Below, in pieces: positions 1,515 to 31,001 of a DNA stretch of 31,001 nucleotides. The position numbers and the translations under genes were made by a program. This stretch comes from a virus, in IMG/VR virus record IMGVR_UViG_3300002483_000006; one strand, written 5' to 3'. The notes below the pieces were generated by a model. The model worked only from the letters and a program-made list of their open reading frames with translations, searched no databases and was not told the DNA's origin. Within the stretch, counting starts at the first letter, position 1; every line of letters begins with the position of its first letter.

Positions 1515-1880
1515 TTAGTTTAGTTTTAAAAATTCTGCGTTTGCGTGTTCTGTGAACCAATCTTTGTTTTCGTTATATTTGTCAACAACTGCGTCAATCA
1601 TTACAAGTTCGTCAATACTGGCTGTTTTAAGCTTGTTTACAAGCGTATCTATTTTTCTTAATACGTTTGTACACATTTCAGGGTTATTGGAATAAATAAG
1701 ATTAAAATCTGTTTTTACTATTCCCTCAAGTATTTTAGTTGTTCTGTTTACTTGTTGTTTAAGGTTTTGTTTGTATTGGTATGTTCCAACCAGTTCATCG
1801 TTTGCCTCTAATAACAACTGGCTTAATAACACCACCTTTAAATAATTTAGGTGTTTGTTGTTTATTTGTTCTGGTTTCAT
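1515..1880 (-). CDS. Hypothetical helical protein, 121 aa
   Basis: ATG start overlaps the upstream stop (TAATG). In register with the minus-strand gene array. Confidence 0.6.
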   Translation of the reverse strand: MKPEQINNKHLNYLKVVLLSQLLLEANDELVGTYQYKQNLKQQVNRTTKILEGIVKTDFNLIYSNNPEMCTNVLRKIDTLVNKLKTASIDELVMIDAVVDKYNENKDWFTEHANAEFLKLN

Positions 1881-2620
1881 TAAAATAAAGTTGTTTGTTT
1901 ACTGGTTAATATTTTGTAACTGTTTTTATTTAGTAGTATTTCGTTTGGTCGTTTAGTGTTTAGCTTTATACATTCGCCCCACTTGTTTATCAAGTATTTT
2001 ATTGTTTGCTGTTCTAACTGCTCTGTTCTGTAGCTTACCGCACCGCCTTTATTCCCATACCTTTTAAAGTTAAATAAATACTTGTGATACCGTATGCAGC
2101 CAGCTTTTTTAATATGCTGCAAAGTGTAATCATAATCTTCCTTTAATTTTAATGTTTTATCAAACCTTATTTCATTGGGTTTTGTAATTGTAAAGGGTGC
2201 AGTAATTAATATATTTTCTTGACTTGGTTTTGTTGCAAAAAATGGGTTTTCTGTTGGGGGCGCACCAGCAAAAAAATAATCTGTTTCTAAAAATTGTTTT
2301 AAAATGCCGTCAATTGCTTGCTTTACAGTCACGTATTTTTTTGTCCTTTTTCCTGTAAAATCATTTACACTTACATTAATTAAGTCATCATCTATTTGTA
2401 CGCATATTTTATTTTTATTAAAACAATAATCAAGCGCAGCGTTTCTGTTACCTACCAAACTGCCGCCTAAAATAACATTTTTTGCGCCGTTTTTAATATA
2501 TAGGTTTTTATCAATTTCATCATTAACAACAAAAACAATATCTTCCGTTCCAGTTGTTTCATATATTTGCTTTATATTTTCTGGCCTTCTGTGGCTGATG
2601 CAAGTTATAATATATTCCAT
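1880..2620 (-). CDS. GT-A fold glycosyltransferase-like protein, 246 aa (candidate DNA base glycosyltransferase)
   Basis: An N-terminal Rossmann-like strand (YIITCISHRRPENI) is followed by VFVVND, GNRNAALDY and then a DxD-type motif after a beta strand (ICVQIDDDL). Lies in the same tight operon as the TET/JBP-like gene. Confidence 0.5.
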   Translation of the reverse strand: MEYIITCISHRRPENIKQIYETTGTEDIVFVVNDEIDKNLYIKNGAKNVILGGSLVGNRNAALDYCFNKNKICVQIDDDLINVSVNDFTGKRTKKYVTVKQAIDGILKQFLETDYFFAGAPPTENPFFATKPSQENILITAPFTITKPNEIRFDKTLKLKEDYDYTLQHIKKAGCIRYHKYLFNFKRYGNKGGAVSYRTEQLEQQTIKYLINKWGECIKLNTKRPNEILLNKNSYKILTSKQTTLF

Positions 2621-2621
2621 A

Positions 2622-3077
2622 CTAAAACAATTTAGTTTGATTAGTTACTTTTTCAATACAGAATTTATCTGCCATTGCTTTACTTAATAAAAATCCTCTT
2701 TCTGTGCCACCTTTGGCAGTTTTAAAACCGTTGTAAAGCTTTGGTTTATTTCCGTGGTATATTTGCCGCAGCTGTTTGGTGCTAAATATATAAAAGCAAT
2801 CTTTATCGCCAATTACATAAAGCCAGCTTTGATCTTTAAATATACCGCTGGGGTGTGTTACATATTCATATTCACGTTCAACACTTATAAAAAGGTTGCC
2901 AGTTTTTTTAAACATTTGGTCGTTCTTTATTTCTACGCCCTGTCTGTTTTCACCTTTAAGGTACTGTTCTTCTTTTGTGGTGTAATGGCTGAGGTTAATG
3001 TTTTTTTCTGTTGTGAACCAGTCGTAAACGAATGACTCAAACTTGAGGCCGTTGCTTTGCTTAATTGTTGTTTCCAT
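2622..3077 (-). CDS. Hypothetical protein, 151 aa, possible PD-(D/E)xK nuclease fold
   Basis: GLKFESFVYDWF followed by GVEIKND (an ExK-like motif) and further acidic strands (ISVEREYE). Located between the dioxygenase and the glycosyltransferase. The fold call is weak. Confidence 0.35.
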   Translation of the reverse strand: METTIKQSNGLKFESFVYDWFTTEKNINLSHYTTKEEQYLKGENRQGVEIKNDQMFKKTGNLFISVEREYEYVTHPSGIFKDQSWLYVIGDKDCFYIFSTKQLRQIYHGNKPKLYNGFKTAKGGTERGFLLSKAMADKFCIEKVTNQTKLF

Positions 3078-3078
3078 T

Positions 3079-3258
3079 TTATTTAAAGGTTTTTAATTTT
3101 TCAATATAAATAATCGCATCTAATAGTTCTTCTTGTAAGTGGTTTAACCAGTCTGCTTTGTTAAGGTCTTGGCGTTCCATAGTTACGCCGTATTTACTTT
3201 TGCCTATGGCTGCACGTTGGTTAATTTTATCTATTACTTGTTGTTCTATTTTGCTCAT
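3079..3258 (-). CDS. Small ORF missing from the supplied track, 59 aa, with a MazG / dNTP-pyrophosphohydrolase-like helical motif
   Basis: Hand translation: MSKIEQQVIDKINQRAAIGKSKYGVTMERQDLNKADWLNHLQEELLDAIIYIEKLKTFK. ATGA overlap with the upstream stop, and it fills the 3078..3254 gap exactly. The KYG...W...LxEExxD pattern resembles the N-terminal helices of MazG-like enzymes. Confidence 0.45.
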   Translation of the reverse strand: MSKIEQQVIDKINQRAAIGKSKYGVTMERQDLNKADWLNHLQEELLDAIIYIEKLKTFK

Positions 3259-4124
3259 AATGTTAGGTATCCTGTTTTATCCATTTTTGTTTTATGCAGT
3301 TCTTCGCTGGGGCTTTTACATTTAATCATATTTTCCCTGTAATACATTACAAAACTAATACGCAGCCAATCATCACTGCAATTTGTGAACTCTGTATTGG
3401 CGTGCCATTTGTGTACATCTGCAAATAATACGTCTGTATTATGTAGGTCTACAGCTATGGCATATTCTGGCATAACAAAAAAGCCGCCGTCGTAATGCCC
3501 CTCACGATATACAATAAGGTTGCCAAACCCCTCACTAAAATCGCCAGCATCTTGATGGCAAGCCGTACGGAAGTTCTTGTTTACCGTTACAGTTGTAAAA
3601 CTTGTATCGCCTATAACGTAGTTTCTGTTCGTACCGTCTGCAATAGCTTTTTGTTTTGCGTAATGTTCTGGGCAAAGTTCCGCATATTTTTTATCAATAA
3701 ATTCTACAAACGGAATACCAGCTGTAAACTTGTCAAAGTAGTTACGTGCAAAGGCAGTTTTGCGGCAATACTTAACCATCGCACCGCTGTCCATAAAACC
3801 AACGTTGCCAGACTCTACCTTATTCCCTACCGTAATGTTACTAACTGAACCGTCCTTGCGTATGCGCTTGTGACTGCTGCCACTTGCTGCACCCCTACTT
3901 TCTGTAAGTTCTATAGAACCCTTAAAGGCATCAACACCGCTTTTTAATATATCGTAAGGTATTGCGTTTTTACGGAACCTGAACAATAGGTTTCCATAAT
4001 TATCGTAAGCATCGCAGTCCTCTGTTATAAGCTGGTTATAATGTTTATCAGTAAGGAACTTTGTTTTAAGTTTGGCAGCTTGCTTTTTTGTTAAAACCCT
4101 TTTGGCTGTTATTGTTTTAATCAT
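3255..4124 (-). CDS. TET/JBP-family 2-oxoglutarate/Fe(II)-dependent nucleic-acid base dioxygenase, 289 aa
   Basis: FTTVTVNKNFRTACHQDAGD carries an HxD iron triad (H190, D192). VHKWHANT supplies the distal His. WLRISFVMYYRE places an Arg 14 residues after that His. Compare human TET2 [20 protein letters not shown] and H...RISLVFYQHK. Confidence 0.7.
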   Translation of the reverse strand: MIKTITAKRVLTKKQAAKLKTKFLTDKHYNQLITEDCDAYDNYGNLLFRFRKNAIPYDILKSGVDAFKGSIELTESRGAASGSSHKRIRKDGSVSNITVGNKVESGNVGFMDSGAMVKYCRKTAFARNYFDKFTAGIPFVEFIDKKYAELCPEHYAKQKAIADGTNRNYVIGDTSFTTVTVNKNFRTACHQDAGDFSEGFGNLIVYREGHYDGGFFVMPEYAIAVDLHNTDVLFADVHKWHANTEFTNCSDDWLRISFVMYYRENMIKCKSPSEELHKTKMDKTGYLTL

Positions 4125-4329
4125 AGTTACGTTTTAATAGCATTAATAAAAAATCACTTAAGTTGCCTTTTTGCTGGTATGCCTCGCCAAACTCTTGTTG
4201 GATACCTTTTTTACATAGGGTTTTAAATTGCTTTAATTCCTGTCTGCTAAAATATAATATTGTAGTAGTTATTTCAACATCTTCTATTGGCGAATTATCT
4301 ACGCCCCAGTTGTCATCAAATAGTTTCAT
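4117..4329 (-). CDS. Hypothetical protein, 70 aa (possibly ribbon-helix-helix-like)
   Basis: The ATG at 4329 forms an ATGA overlap with the upstream stop. The track start at 4347 is a TTG. ILYFSRQELKQFKTLCKK ... LSDFLLMLLK has a strand-helix-helix look. Confidence 0.5.
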   Translation of the reverse strand: MKLFDDNWGVDNSPIEDVEITTTILYFSRQELKQFKTLCKKGIQQEFGEAYQQKGNLSDFLLMLLKRNYD

Positions 4330-5099
4330 AGTGTACCGCTTAAACAATAGTTATCAATATCAGCACCAGCAACAAAAAACTTGTCGTATAAGTCAATGGC
4401 CTTTTGTACCTTTTCTTCGCCAGCATAATAAAACTCCTCGCTACAATCCCAGATGCCAATATCTAAACTGCCTTTGTCAAGTACAAGGAATTTAAAATCT
4501 TGGTAACTTTTGCCAAACAAATTACAATACAAATAGCATTGAATATCGTAGCCGTACTTTTTGGCAGCATAATGGAACCCCTTTATATCGCTGGTGGTTT
4601 TAAGATCTACTATTCTGTCGCTTGCAAGTACATCGGCCTTTCCTCTAAAGGGTTTGCCCATAACTTCGCCAATGGCAGGAACTTCAAAATTACAGTTGGT
4701 TATTAACTGCAAGGCGTGTTCATTGCGGTAAAACGCATCTGCAAGCCGCTCAGCGTCGCTTTTTTCTTTGGCGGTGAATACCCTACCCAGTTCGGTTTTA
4801 GCTTCCTTAAACTTCTTTGTATTCTTGCTTTGCACGTCAATAAAGGTTTGCGCTGCAAACACATCGGGCTCAAGTATGGCGGTATGGAATAACCAGCCAT
4901 CGCGTAGGGCTTGACTTTCAGCACTACCGTACTCCTTTACAAATTTGTACGTTTTAGGGCTGGCCAGCAAAGTTTTTAAACTGCTGCTGCTTAATGCCAA
5001 TTTATCAAGCTCTCCGTAGTAAAAGTCATCGTTTTGCATTTTTTTAAGTAATGCTGCGGTGTCGTATATTTTACCGTCTAATAATTTAATTGTAGCCAT
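4326..5099 (-). CDS. PD-(D/E)xK exonuclease (RecE / Exo VIII-like, RecB/Cas4-type nuclease domain), 257 aa
   Basis: GKADVLASDRIVDLKTT gives the D...(D/E)xK motif, followed by a QxxxY motif (YDIQCYLY). The ATG at 5099 lies one nt after the upstream stop. The track start at 5114 is a TTG. Confidence 0.7.
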   Translation of the reverse strand: MATIKLLDGKIYDTAALLKKMQNDDFYYGELDKLALSSSSLKTLLASPKTYKFVKEYGSAESQALRDGWLFHTAILEPDVFAAQTFIDVQSKNTKKFKEAKTELGRVFTAKEKSDAERLADAFYRNEHALQLITNCNFEVPAIGEVMGKPFRGKADVLASDRIVDLKTTSDIKGFHYAAKKYGYDIQCYLYCNLFGKSYQDFKFLVLDKGSLDIGIWDCSEEFYYAGEEKVQKAIDLYDKFFVAGADIDNYCLSGTL

Positions 5100-5100
5100 A

Positions 5101-5298
5101 TTATATTTTTTCAAGTATTATGTATTCTAAATCGTGTAATTGGTCTGGGCTTAATAAATTATAAATATCGTAGCCACCAACTTCAACACTTTCTATTTCT
5201 ACCTCATCAGGCGAGCCAGGATAAGCAAAGGTTTGTTCTTCGCCTTTATAAAATTCGTATGCCACCTCCATAGGTATTTCGCAATAATTTATTTTCAT
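5101..5298 (-). CDS. Hypothetical acidic protein, 65 aa
   Basis: ATG start, 4-nt overlap with the upstream gene, in the gene array. Confidence 0.55.
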   Translation of the reverse strand: MKINYCEIPMEVAYEFYKGEEQTFAYPGSPDEVEIESVEVGGYDIYNLLSPDQLHDLEYIILEKI

Positions 5299-29402: not shown

Positions 29403-30557
29403 TTAGTGAACTGCATATTTTCCAAAGTTAGGACGGCTTAAAATTGAATAAGTTGCGTAACGTACAGCATCAATTATGTGATTATTCTTGTCTACTGGCT
29501 TGTTTGTTAGTTTGCCACTTCTGTCCTCTGCCCATTTGTAGTTTCTAAATTCTTGTATTGCGTTGTTACTGTCTGCGGTTATATGTATTTTAAAGCGTTT
29601 AAGCAAGTCTATTCCAGCGTTAATACTATCACGCCCCTTTAAGCTGGGTTGTATATTATGCCCCATCCTGCGCAGTTCGTCAATTAAACGTGGCTCAGCT
29701 GCATCAAAATAAATTGGGTTGCGCCCTATTGGTAAGCTTTTAAAATGGTCGCTGATATCACGTGTGGTCATCATAGTCCTATACAGGTGTTCTTTTATAT
29801 ATAGGTTATAATCCTTTTTATATACGCTTACAAGTGTGCTCGGGTCGTTAGTGTACCCAGCATCTGCGCCGTAGCTTATAAGTTCAGCATCGTGTGGAAT
29901 ATGCGGTACTTCTATATAATTAAATATCGTTGCTTTGCTTACACCCCTAACCCCAAGGCCGTATATTTGCCAGTATTGTTCATCGGTTTCTTTAAGCCGT
30001 TCTATTTCTGTTATTATACTGGGGTCTAAAAACTTGTTGTCTAAATATGTGGTTTTGTAAAATTCAACATCTTCCCTATTTAGTACCTTGTCATATATCC
30101 AATGATATTCATCACTTGGGTTGTAATCTAATATTATTTTTTCTGTTGTTCTAAATATAAGCTGCTGCCAATCTTCGTAGTCAAGTTCGTTAGCCTCATT
30201 AATAAATAAAAGGTCACGTTTGCGCCCCCTTATTTTTTGCGGCTGGTCTACGCTTATAAATTCTATAAGGTTGCCACCTAAGTTGTATTCACTATTGCTT
30301 TTATTGTGGTGCGCTTCATCATATATATTATGCTGTTTTAATATATCAATAAAATCACGCATAACAGAACTGCGTACAGCTGGGAACGTTTTACGGCAAA
30401 TGGTTACCGTTTTATCTACGTTTGTTTGGCAGTAGTGGAATATTAAATACAGGAGGATATTGTAGGTCTTACCGCTACGTGTACCCCCCTGTTCTACTAC
30501 TATCTTTTTTTGGCTGTCAAGTAAGTGCTCAAATACTACATTAACATCAACTGTCAC
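29403..30557 (-). CDS. terL: Terminase large subunit (PBSX/Terminase_3-like), 384 aa
   Basis: Walker A GGTRSGKT and Walker B LLFINEANE. Nuclease motifs GADAGYTNDPSTLV and NHIIDAVRYA. The GTG start overlaps the terS stop. Confidence 0.9.
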   Translation of the reverse strand: MTVDVNVVFEHLLDSQKKIVVEQGGTRSGKTYNILLYLIFHYCQTNVDKTVTICRKTFPAVRSSVMRDFIDILKQHNIYDEAHHNKSNSEYNLGGNLIEFISVDQPQKIRGRKRDLLFINEANELDYEDWQQLIFRTTEKIILDYNPSDEYHWIYDKVLNREDVEFYKTTYLDNKFLDPSIITEIERLKETDEQYWQIYGLGVRGVSKATIFNYIEVPHIPHDAELISYGADAGYTNDPSTLVSVYKKDYNLYIKEHLYRTMMTTRDISDHFKSLPIGRNPIYFDAAEPRLIDELRRMGHNIQPSLKGRDSINAGIDLLKRFKIHITADSNNAIQEFRNYKWAEDRSGKLTNKPVDKNNHIIDAVRYATYSILSRPNFGKYAVH

Positions 30558-30901
30558 CTATGTATTTTAATATTTATTTCCTTGTCTGTGGTGTCGTGCT
30601 TTATTTCACGCTTTGTACCGTTTAACCTATGCGCTTCATCATCATCTGCAATTAGCTTCATTAGGCCTATTTGTAAAGTAGGGTTATCGCTTTCGTACCA
30701 TTTGGCTCGCATATCTACTTTCATATTTATACGGTTTTTTGCCAGTTCGCTTTTTATAGCGTTGCATTCTTGCAATTTGTGGTCATAAAACGCCCTTTTA
30801 CTGAACCCAGTATAACCAAATATATCGCCTATAAAAACAAGGTTATGTTTTTTTATTACCTCTAAACTTTGTTCCCTTAATTCTTCTGTATTGTATGCCA
30901 T
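30554..30901 (-). CDS. terS: Putative terminase small subunit (same gene as 591..938)
   Basis: Identical ORF at offset 29963. Confidence 0.55.
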   Translation of the reverse strand: MAYNTEELREQSLEVIKKHNLVFIGDIFGYTGFSKRAFYDHKLQECNAIKSELAKNRINMKVDMRAKWYESDNPTLQIGLMKLIADDDEAHRLNGTKREIKHDTTDKEINIKIHR

Positions 30902-30941
30902 AGTATTATCTATATTTATATATAAACAATTTAGTAAATTT

Positions 30942-31001
30942 TTATTCGCTTATAATGGCTTCTACTTTTTCTACTTGTTCTGGTGTAAGGTTTTGTATCT
31001 T
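30942..31001 (-). CDS. 3' end of the DnaA domain-IV-like gene (same gene as 979..1335), cut by the window edge
   Basis: Identical to 979..1038. Confidence 0.5.
   Translation of the reverse strand, partial: KIQNLTPEQVEKVEAIISE

Follow-up and report, generated by a model that had tools for sequence, protein, structure and literature searches.

The 31,001-nucleotide stretch of viral DNA held as IMG/VR virus record IMGVR_UViG_3300002483_000006, which is referred to here over its whole length as the window, carries on its minus strand a compact gene run that includes two enzymes, a TET/JBP-family (5mYOX) Fe(II)/2-oxoglutarate (2OG) dioxygenase of 289 residues (TET; positions 3255..4124) and a TAGT-family glycosyltransferase (GT) of 246 residues (1880..2620). 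Between these genes lie the open reading frame (ORF) p59, of 59 residues (3079..3258), and the gene of the conserved 151-residue protein p151 (2622..3077). An earlier note on this DNA, made from the sequence alone, described these four genes as a cassette, and the ORF list agrees with it on their positions, their minus-strand orientation and their tight packing. The conserved module extends further, to a small conserved ORF upstream of TET that the earlier note did not list and that is called p70/p76 here (4117..4329 with 70 aa from an ATG, or 4117..4347 with 76 aa from a TTG). The successive overlaps or gaps along the gene run are only 8, 4, 1, 1 and 1 nt, the overlap of p70/p76 with TET being 8 nt and that of TET with p59 being 4 nt, and translational coupling is therefore plausible. 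As argued below, the module is probably a post-replicative one of the phage 5mYOX type, which would convert thymine (T) into 5-hydroxymethyluracil (5hmU) and then into a base-J-like glycosyl-5hmU.

The 289-residue protein is assigned by Pfam to the Tet_JBP family (PF12851) with 82.4 bits, the cutoff being 34.9, and E=2.8e-23 over residues 117-264. Its catalytic core is encoded at 3360..3557 and comprises H190-Q-D192, of which H190 and D192 are the Fe ligands, the distal histidine (H238/H241) and R255 in 'RISFVMYYRE', which is the residue for the 2OG carboxylate. These residues are invariant alignment columns in 20 relatives down to 38% identity. The profile match and the invariant residues confirm the earlier description of a TET/JBP-like dioxygenase with an HQD triad, a distal histidine and an RISFVMYY arginine. 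A sequence profile of TET finds only a weak match among PDB chains, to TET2 at E=0.59. The family is large, with 1,023 homologs, of which the top 120 have 288-293 aa and at least 73% identity, and the TET gene has 72% nucleotide identity to gp26 of Nonlabens (Persicivirga) phage P12024L. A peptide-seeded search that covered 185,579 species of bacteria and archaea, with one genome per species, found no TET relative, and the lineage appears to be strictly viral, without prophage copies. TET is also 42-48% identical, over its full length, to TETs encoded behind ParB_N proteins together with GATase and a P-loop kinase, and this identity spans the C-terminal segment beyond the last conserved cysteine.

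The 246-residue protein matches the Pfam TAGT family (PF20691) over the complete model (positions 1-205 of 205) with 27.1 bits, the cutoff being 27.5, and E=4.7e-6, and it matches phrog_842 at 1e-15. No match to PDB chains is found with its sequence profile. The relatives of this locus have a second GT subtype, the P12024L-type TAGT, which scores 76.3 bits with Pfam TAGT, and the window GT aligns with this subtype in hhalign over 230 columns (97.3%, P=2e-11). The putative metal/nucleotide-sugar-binding DxD motif, D77-D78-D79 in 'IDDDL', is encoded at 2384..2392, and D78-D79 are invariant in the alignment across both GT subtypes. The full-length TAGT match, the hhalign result and this invariant pair agree with the earlier description of a glycosyltransferase with an acidic DxD-type motif. 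A structural match between GT-A DNA glycosyltransferases of phages and the putative JGT of T. cruzi has been described (Pyle et al. 2023/24). The 246-residue protein is predicted to add a sugar to the 5-hydroxymethyl group that the dioxygenase would make.

The search for further modification enzymes covered a complete genome, that of a small marine phage. The two window ends (positions 1-1038 and 29964-31001) are identical over 1,038 bp, so that the window consists of one complete 29,963-bp unit plus a wrap, as implied by the earlier statement that the genome is complete; the genome is circularly permuted or terminally redundant, and the ORFs of the first 1 kb are therefore repeated at the window end. 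The 65 ORFs were all compared with Pfam, and none of them matches DNA_methylase, N6_N4_Mtase, Dam, thymidylate synthase or ParB. Nine diverse C5- and N6/N4-methyltransferases (MTases) from related loci have no homolog in the six-frame translation when searched by tblastn and phmmer --max. For these queries the best match (E=0.038 over 21 aa) comes from the non-coding strand, and none of the real ORFs contains a catalytic motif. Consequently, the Pfam scan, the six-frame searches and the motif scans uphold the claim that no ORF encodes a C5-methyltransferase (C5-MT), and the Pfam scan also upholds the claimed absence of a thymidylate-synthase-like hydroxymethylase. It is highly improbable that an unassigned ORF encodes a novel enzyme installing the methyl or hydroxymethyl group, such as a divergent MTase or a pre-replicative hydroxymethylase. 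Such an enzyme could be sought among about half of the genome's ORFs, including p59 and p121, which have no family assignment, but no Rossmann/SAM-type, C5-MT, N6/N4 or ThyA-like signal is seen in the Pfam, NCBIfam and PHROGs comparisons, in the nine-MTase searches or in the motif scans. Moreover, the conserved unknown proteins adjacent to TET are explained as ParB-CTD-like (CTD, C-terminal domain) and PD-(D/E)XK-like, and p59 is not conserved in the cassette. The earlier note had left three readings, and the last of them, in which an adjacent unknown protein supplies a new activity, finds no support, as these neighbours do not look like methyltransferases.

The attention given by the earlier note to the missing C5-MT came from the premise that the described phage TET enzymes oxidise 5-methylcytosine (5mC) made by an adjacent C5-MT. 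This premise holds only for Clades A and B of Burke et al. 2021 (PMC8256090), a study in which the characterised phage TETs were chosen for an adjacent C5-MT. Among 5mYOX pathways a C5-MT is present in only 6%, and GTs are the most frequent neighbours (31%) (O'Toole et al. 2026, PMC13229309), so that a TET with a GT and without a C5-MT is the common case and no anomaly. Such orphan cassettes are the majority case, already recognised, and not a new kind of system. The window system shares with Clades A and B (Burke 2021; Pyle 2023/24) the superfamily, the predicted oxidation of a C5-methyl group followed by glycosylation and a putative GT-A-type DNA GT. It differs from them in that the adjacent C5-MT, which is defining there (within about five genes), is absent from the whole 29,963-bp genome, and in that the nearest relatives of the window enzyme are found in thymidine-type contexts.

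For phage T-dioxygenases, two subclasses have been defined, a ParB-independent one (Clade C2) and a ParB-dependent one (Clade C1), and T-to-5hmU conversion was shown in vivo as well as in vitro (O'Toole et al. 2026, PMC13229309). The Clade C2 enzymes have about 290-300 aa and have GT, MT and endonuclease genes as neighbours, and the neighbours in Clade C1 are GATase, P-loop kinase and amino acid:DNA transferase (AADT) (same study). In E. coli, TET89 of Clade C2 oxidises about 10% of T, yielding 5hmU, and it also acts weakly on 5mC (Burke et al. 2021, PMC8256090), and for TET89 and 20-odd Clade C2 enzymes the published conversion in E. coli is 9-15% of T (Burke 2021, O'Toole 2026).

The gene neighbourhoods of TET were compared by annotating 67 IMG/VR loci, of which 46 are close relatives (at least 67% TET identity) and 21 are distant relatives (36-48%, full-length matches). 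A p76 homolog is found upstream of TET in 43 of the 46 close relatives, the 3 exceptions being loci cut at TET, and ParB is never found in them. Downstream of TET, all 43 close relatives with enough sequence encode a GT or a protein of the AADT cluster (GT in 37 of 43, AADT-cluster protein in 7 of 43), and p151 is present in 28 of 43. In the distant relatives, a ParB_N protein (PF02195) is encoded directly upstream of TET and overlaps its start in 16 of 18 loci; GATase and a P-loop nucleotide kinase are also encoded, which is the published context of the ParB-dependent T-dioxygenases. The p76-TET-TAGT core is also present in a cultured isolate, phage P12024L (NC_018272; host Flavobacteriaceae), with the gene order gp25 (p76 homolog, 60% identical), gp26 (TET), gp27 (TAGT) and gp28 (N6/N4 methylase). 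P12024L differs in that its GT is of the other TAGT subtype, with 21% identity to the window GT and the tail QLEIF, in that p151 and p59 are absent, and in that gp28, which ends in QxxLF, directly follows the GT. The neighbouring 'methyltransferase' gp28 was considered as the missing C5-MT and rejected, being of the N6/N4 type.

In two close relatives, L028 and L042, with TETs 71-75% identical to that of the window, p76 and TET are found with a PF18724 amino acid:DNA transferase (E=1.3e-21) and a P-loop kinase. AADT together with kinase is known machinery of 5hmU-derived thymidine hypermodification. Judged from these gene orders, one TET type plugs into different decorator sets, and the presence of a GT or AADT after TET in 43 of 43 loci would mean that TET provides a general priming step, after which different decorators act on a hydroxymethyl pyrimidine. 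The stretches concerned (L028:2051-5505 and L042:797-4251) have, in place of the GT, the PF18724 AADT, the P-loop kinase with a QxxLF-type tail (QQSLF), a 208-aa protein and a C5-MT; the 208-aa protein has faint SAM-MTase-like matches. At L030:7325-8419, and at the same position in L033, a 365-aa protein of the AADT BLAST cluster takes the GT position after p151. This protein has no Pfam match alone and may be a divergent transferase.

The sequence neighbours of this TET lineage and its interchangeable downstream decorators thus tie it to thymine, and this is the basis of the T to 5hmU to glycosyl-5hmU reading, which is considered to be the probable one. The 289-residue enzyme would accordingly be a DNA thymine C5-methyl hydroxylase. 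This is also in agreement with the isolate relative P12024L, in which an adjacent C5-MT is lacking as well. Among the three readings of the earlier note, thymine hydroxylation leading to a base-J-like glycosyl-5hmU is the best supported one, but the novelty claimed for it does not stand: it is an already published expectation, and phage T-dioxygenases have been described (Burke 2021, Pyle 2023/24, O'Toole 2026). In the literature searched, no paper was found in which glycosyl-5hmU is demonstrated as an end product in a phage.

Several points weigh against this reading. The choice of T over 5mC as the substrate is drawn from homology and context, the window GT taken alone is 0.4 bits under the Pfam TAGT cutoff, and the product, glycosyl-5hmU, is a predicted one. 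The clade placement is indirect, by length, neighbours and scores. The high similarity to ParB-associated TETs (EFI-style alignment scores of 58-78, compared with a 1e-50 threshold) suggests that the window enzyme may be a Clade C1 member lacking ParB, and some of these are reported to be inactive. C5-MT-like genes are present within a few kb in 5 of the 46 close relatives, and two of them, in L028 and L042, look intact, which suggests that a 5mC route exists or existed in this lineage.

The last point bears on the first of the three readings, according to which a C5-MT of the host, either of a restriction-modification (R-M) system or an orphan Dcm-like enzyme, installs 5mC, which the phage TET oxidises to 5-hydroxymethylcytosine for glycosylation by the GT. 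This route is quite unlikely. It draws on the C5-MT genes near TET in some close relatives, namely the intact 362-aa enzyme encoded farther along in L028 and L042 (PF00145, 2e-58) and the shorter C5-MT-like genes in L026, L046 and L013, and on the weak 5mC activity that TET89 has besides its activity on T. However, the nearest distinct relatives are found in thymidine-hypermodification cassettes and not in C5-MT cassettes, N6/N4 MTases are about as frequent near TET (3 of 46) as C5-MT-like genes, and methylation by a host R-M system would yield sparse sites only. The published data also disfavour it, a C5-MT being rare in the surveyed pathways (O'Toole et al. 2026, PMC13229309) and the C5-MTs associated with clade C/D TETs being mostly inactive (Burke et al. 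2021, PMC8256090). The contexts of the relatives, with ParB, GATase, P-loop kinase and AADT, likewise speak against host 5mC. The short C5-MT-like proteins have 201-288 aa (L046:2360-3022, L013:1954-2595, L026:5389-6252 and L049:849-1451) and cover only the N-terminal third to half of PF00145, and two of them end in QxxLF. They recall the motif-deficient, inactive C5-MTs that are encoded next to clade C/D TETs (Burke et al.).

The thymine route can be written as a short sequence of steps. The dioxygenase would hydroxylate the C5-methyl group of thymine in phage DNA to give 5hmU, and, as thymine already carries the methyl group, a prior methylation step is unneeded. With a nucleotide-sugar as donor, the GT would then glycosylate this hydroxymethyl group. 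The resulting base-J-like glycosyl-5hmU would presumably protect the DNA against nucleases of the host. The p70/p76 protein would probably act together with the dioxygenase, and the QxxLF peptide would probably bring p151 and the GT to one shared docking site, which could be the sliding clamp of the host or the complex of dioxygenase and p70. The same predicted chemistry, T to 5hmU by a TET/JBP enzyme and O-glycosylation by a GT-A enzyme, is that of base J in trypanosomatids (JBP1/JBP2 and JGT). The likeness is a distant one, at the level of the superfamily, as the window enzyme is minimal, with 289 aa and neither a J-binding nor a SWI2/SNF2 domain, and the role also differs, being transcription control in the eukaryote and, for the product predicted here, phage genome protection.

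The protective role can be questioned, as 5hmU or glycosyl-5hmU could instead be placed sparsely and at specific sequences, as marks that serve regulation or packaging, or the enzyme could be inactive without its small partner; the module would then be an epigenetic-like marking system, which is judged unlikely. For the characterised enzymes, sequence preferences (YTY for 5mYOX97 and NTR for 5mYOX176/ParB), partial conversion and an epigenetic-like role have been described or discussed (O'Toole et al. 2026, PMC13229309), and the conserved ParB-CTD-like partner suggests a regulated activity. The bulky decorators, present as GT or AADT in every close relative with enough sequence, and the abundance in marine viromes nevertheless fit defence evasion at least as well, and no sequence feature sets the marking role apart from it.

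The small ORF p70/p76 is a conserved companion of TET. Its start is most likely the ATG at 4329, and p76 homologs are started by gene callers at Met7, giving 70-72 aa. In the p76 family 27 of 70 columns are invariant, and the small partner protein has 101 representatives (50%-identity clusters) in marine viromes. In the shared slot upstream of TET, p76 is found in 34 of 40 close relatives and in 0 of 18 distant relatives, and ParB in 0 of 40 and 16 of 18, respectively; the two are mutually exclusive. In a first hhalign comparison, p76 residues 12-77 align to the last ~60 residues of the TET-adjacent ParB (P=1.9e-5). In a deeper one, with 237 p76-family sequences (Neff 4.7) compared with 34 TET-adjacent ParBs from 80 further loci, residues 8/14-69 align on ParB residues 157/161-210 of 215-221 with probabilities of 92-94% and P=1.7e-7 to 5.3e-7. 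When 194 other neighbourhood clusters are used as controls, the sole other match is the small ORF of L062 (87%), the remainder being at 5% or less, and a reversed ParB alignment gives 0.1%. The small ORF of L062 (5802-6020) is located upstream of TET in a relative lacking ParB, with a TET 42% identical to that of the window. The pattern common to p76 and ParB consists of a strand ('TILYF' and 'MVQLF', respectively), 'E..FK', 'NLSD' or 'NLTD', and a final helix ending in K..Y.

In the AlphaFold2 (AF2) monomer model of p76, an extended segment is followed by two helices, with moderate confidence (pLDDT 72). When this model is compared with the PDB by Foldseek, nothing significant is found, the weak top matches including the ribbon-helix-helix protein CdbA at E of about 7. 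In a HMMER search of 1.84 billion proteins with the p76 profile no full-length ParB is found, and the family consists only of short stand-alone proteins. The link with ParB is therefore one of profile-profile comparison and synteny. On these grounds p70/p76 is likely to be homologous to the ParB CTD and is a candidate partner of the dioxygenase. No N-terminal ParB domain for nucleotide binding (NBD) is found in the genome by Pfam; the CTD-like 70-aa protein is all that corresponds to ParB. This arrangement is different from that of ParB176, as 5mYOX176 requires both the NBD and the CTD of its ParB (O'Toole et al. 2026, PMC13229309).

The module resembles both published subclasses. As in Clade C2 (5mYOX89 and 5mYOX97, 290 aa), TET is a stand-alone Tet_JBP protein of very similar length, without a full ParB gene and presumably without the need for an adjacent C5-MT, and neighbours of the Clade C2 types are also found, namely the GT and the endonuclease-like p151 in the window and N6/N4 or C5 MTases in relatives. 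It differs from Clade C2 in that the scores with the ParB-associated TETs exceed the 1e-50 split, which argues for the C1 side, and in that a ParB-CTD-like mini-ORF, which is absent from the description in the papers, is conserved upstream of TET. Shared with Clade C1 (5mYOX176/ParB176) are the full-length identity of 42-48%, the small upstream gene that overlaps the TET start and is a ParB-CTD homolog by profile-profile comparison, and the AADT and P-loop kinase decorators of close relatives. Here the difference is that the cognate ParB with NBD and CTD is absent and that the decorator is a TAGT GT and not the kinase/AADT/GATase set. Neither T nor 5mC is oxidised in E. coli by some of the Clade C1 members lacking ParB (O'Toole et al. 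2026, PMC13229309), and a ParB reduced to a separate p70/p76 protein could explain why such enzymes are inactive when expressed alone.

The p151 family has 95 members, with invariant residues that include 'GENRQGxEIKND', and is without a match in Pfam, in other family libraries or in a profile comparison with PDB chains. The AF2 model of p151 has a pLDDT of 88.4 and a pTM of 0.83, with values below 50 for the tail residues 148-151. The best fold match in the PDB is the PD-(D/E)XK homing endonuclease I-Ssp6803I (prob 0.99, E=0.017, TM 0.44-0.45), followed by RecU (TM 0.35-0.37); in BFVD, the matches are one protein with a NO VEIN C-terminal domain and otherwise uncharacterised phage proteins. 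The invariant E49-x-K51 is located on a strand. The nuclease fold considered possible in the earlier note is thus weakly supported by fold matches and has no counterpart in a sequence family. Going by the model, p151 may be a small nuclease of the PD-(D/E)XK-like type or a DNA-binding protein, its C-terminal tail being disordered, and it may, as a weak assignment, correspond to the 'endonuclease' neighbours of Clade C2.

The GT and p151 share a short C-terminal motif, as the GT ends in QTTLF (1883..1897) and p151 in QTKLF (2625..2639), these two being the only ones among 111 window ORFs with a Q..[LIM][FLI] ending. In the first set of loci, the QxxLF ending is present in 63 of 699 unique neighbourhood proteins, which are GTs (33 of 40), p151 (18 of 24), P-loop kinases (7 of 13), short C5-MT-like proteins (2 of 2), the P12024L N6/N4 MTase (1 of 1) and 2 others, and among p151 homologs the ending Q..[LM]F is present in 23 of 31. 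Enzymes of this lineage that act on DNA and are otherwise unrelated thus have the ending in common. The tail is found in 38 of 40 GTs and 7 of 7 P-loop kinases of close relatives, and in 0 of 7 GTs and 1 of 8 P-loop kinases of distant relatives. As a general feature of 5mYOX pathways it was rejected, since it is present in 1 of 580 proteins of 80 independent ParB-type loci. In the AF2 model of p151 this tail is disordered.

The consensus reportedly given by Dalrymple et al. in 2001 for binding to the bacterial beta-sliding clamp is QL[SD]LF, and QTTLF and QTKLF resemble such a beta-clamp-binding motif at the extreme C-terminus. By Pfam, no DNA polymerase, clamp or primase is found in the whole window, only an AAA_25-type ATPase, NinG and a RecE-like exonuclease, and replication of the phage is presumably host-dependent. 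By this criterion the phage encodes neither a polymerase nor a clamp, which makes tethering of the modifiers to the host clamp an attractive possibility. Docking onto TET/p70 is just as possible, since the tail varies together with the p76-type lineage. In the literature searched, no paper was found that links a clamp-binding motif to phage DNA-modification enzymes. The shared, lineage-specific QxxLF tail and p70/p76 as a ParB-CTD-like mini-protein both look unreported, and the mini-protein and the docking tail are seen as modest leads.

Taken together, these features could tentatively be read as a third, undescribed subclass of T-dioxygenases, in which a CTD-only ParB is coupled to TET and QxxLF-recruited enzymes form a replication-coupled, base-J-like assembly line. 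In such a subclass p70/p76, translationally coupled to TET, may be required for the activity or may tune it, and the QxxLF tail may recruit the TAGT GT, the PD-(D/E)XK-like protein, the 5hmU kinase and MTases to the host clamp or to TET/p70. The p70/p76 protein and the tail bear on two open points of O'Toole et al. 2026, the role of ParB and the inactivity of enzymes lacking ParB, and both suggest how post-replicative modifiers find newly made DNA. If the thymine route is true, this phage and the cultured P12024L would provide a simple, tractable system for post-replicative base-J-like thymine in a bacterial virus. As the family is abundant in marine viromes, the chemistry would affect the sequencing, restriction and counting of marine Bacteroidota phage DNA.

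The remaining ORF of the cassette, p59, was described as MazG-like in the earlier note, which is not borne out: neither p59 nor its homologs of 71-95 aa have a Pfam or NCBIfam match at E<=1, and its PHROG matches are all of unknown function. Apart from this phage, p59 lies between TET and p151 only in L002 and L019, two relatives with 99% identity; a local rearrangement is suggested for this phage and these relatives, and p59 is probably a locally inserted small gene outside the conserved module. It represents a shorter version of a family with 71-95 aa ('...LNHLQEELMDAxLYIxKLK'), whose genes normally lie ~2 kb upstream of TET, and homologs are found elsewhere at L021:3404, L023:3836, L039:4195 and L040:4398.

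Two further minus-strand genes belong to the run that contains the cassette, a PD-(D/E)XK/DUF3799 exonuclease (4326..5114) and, from the ORF list, the 121-residue p121 (1515..1880). The Pfam scan of the genome also identifies terminase, portal, protease, NinG, lysin and other phage proteins. In the neighbourhood comparison, cluster 4 (389 aa, 31 loci) had been suspected from its length to be a C5-MT and was rejected, being the terminase large subunit. Over the whole window there is a coding strand bias, 34 of the 43 ORFs of at least 100 aa being on the minus strand.

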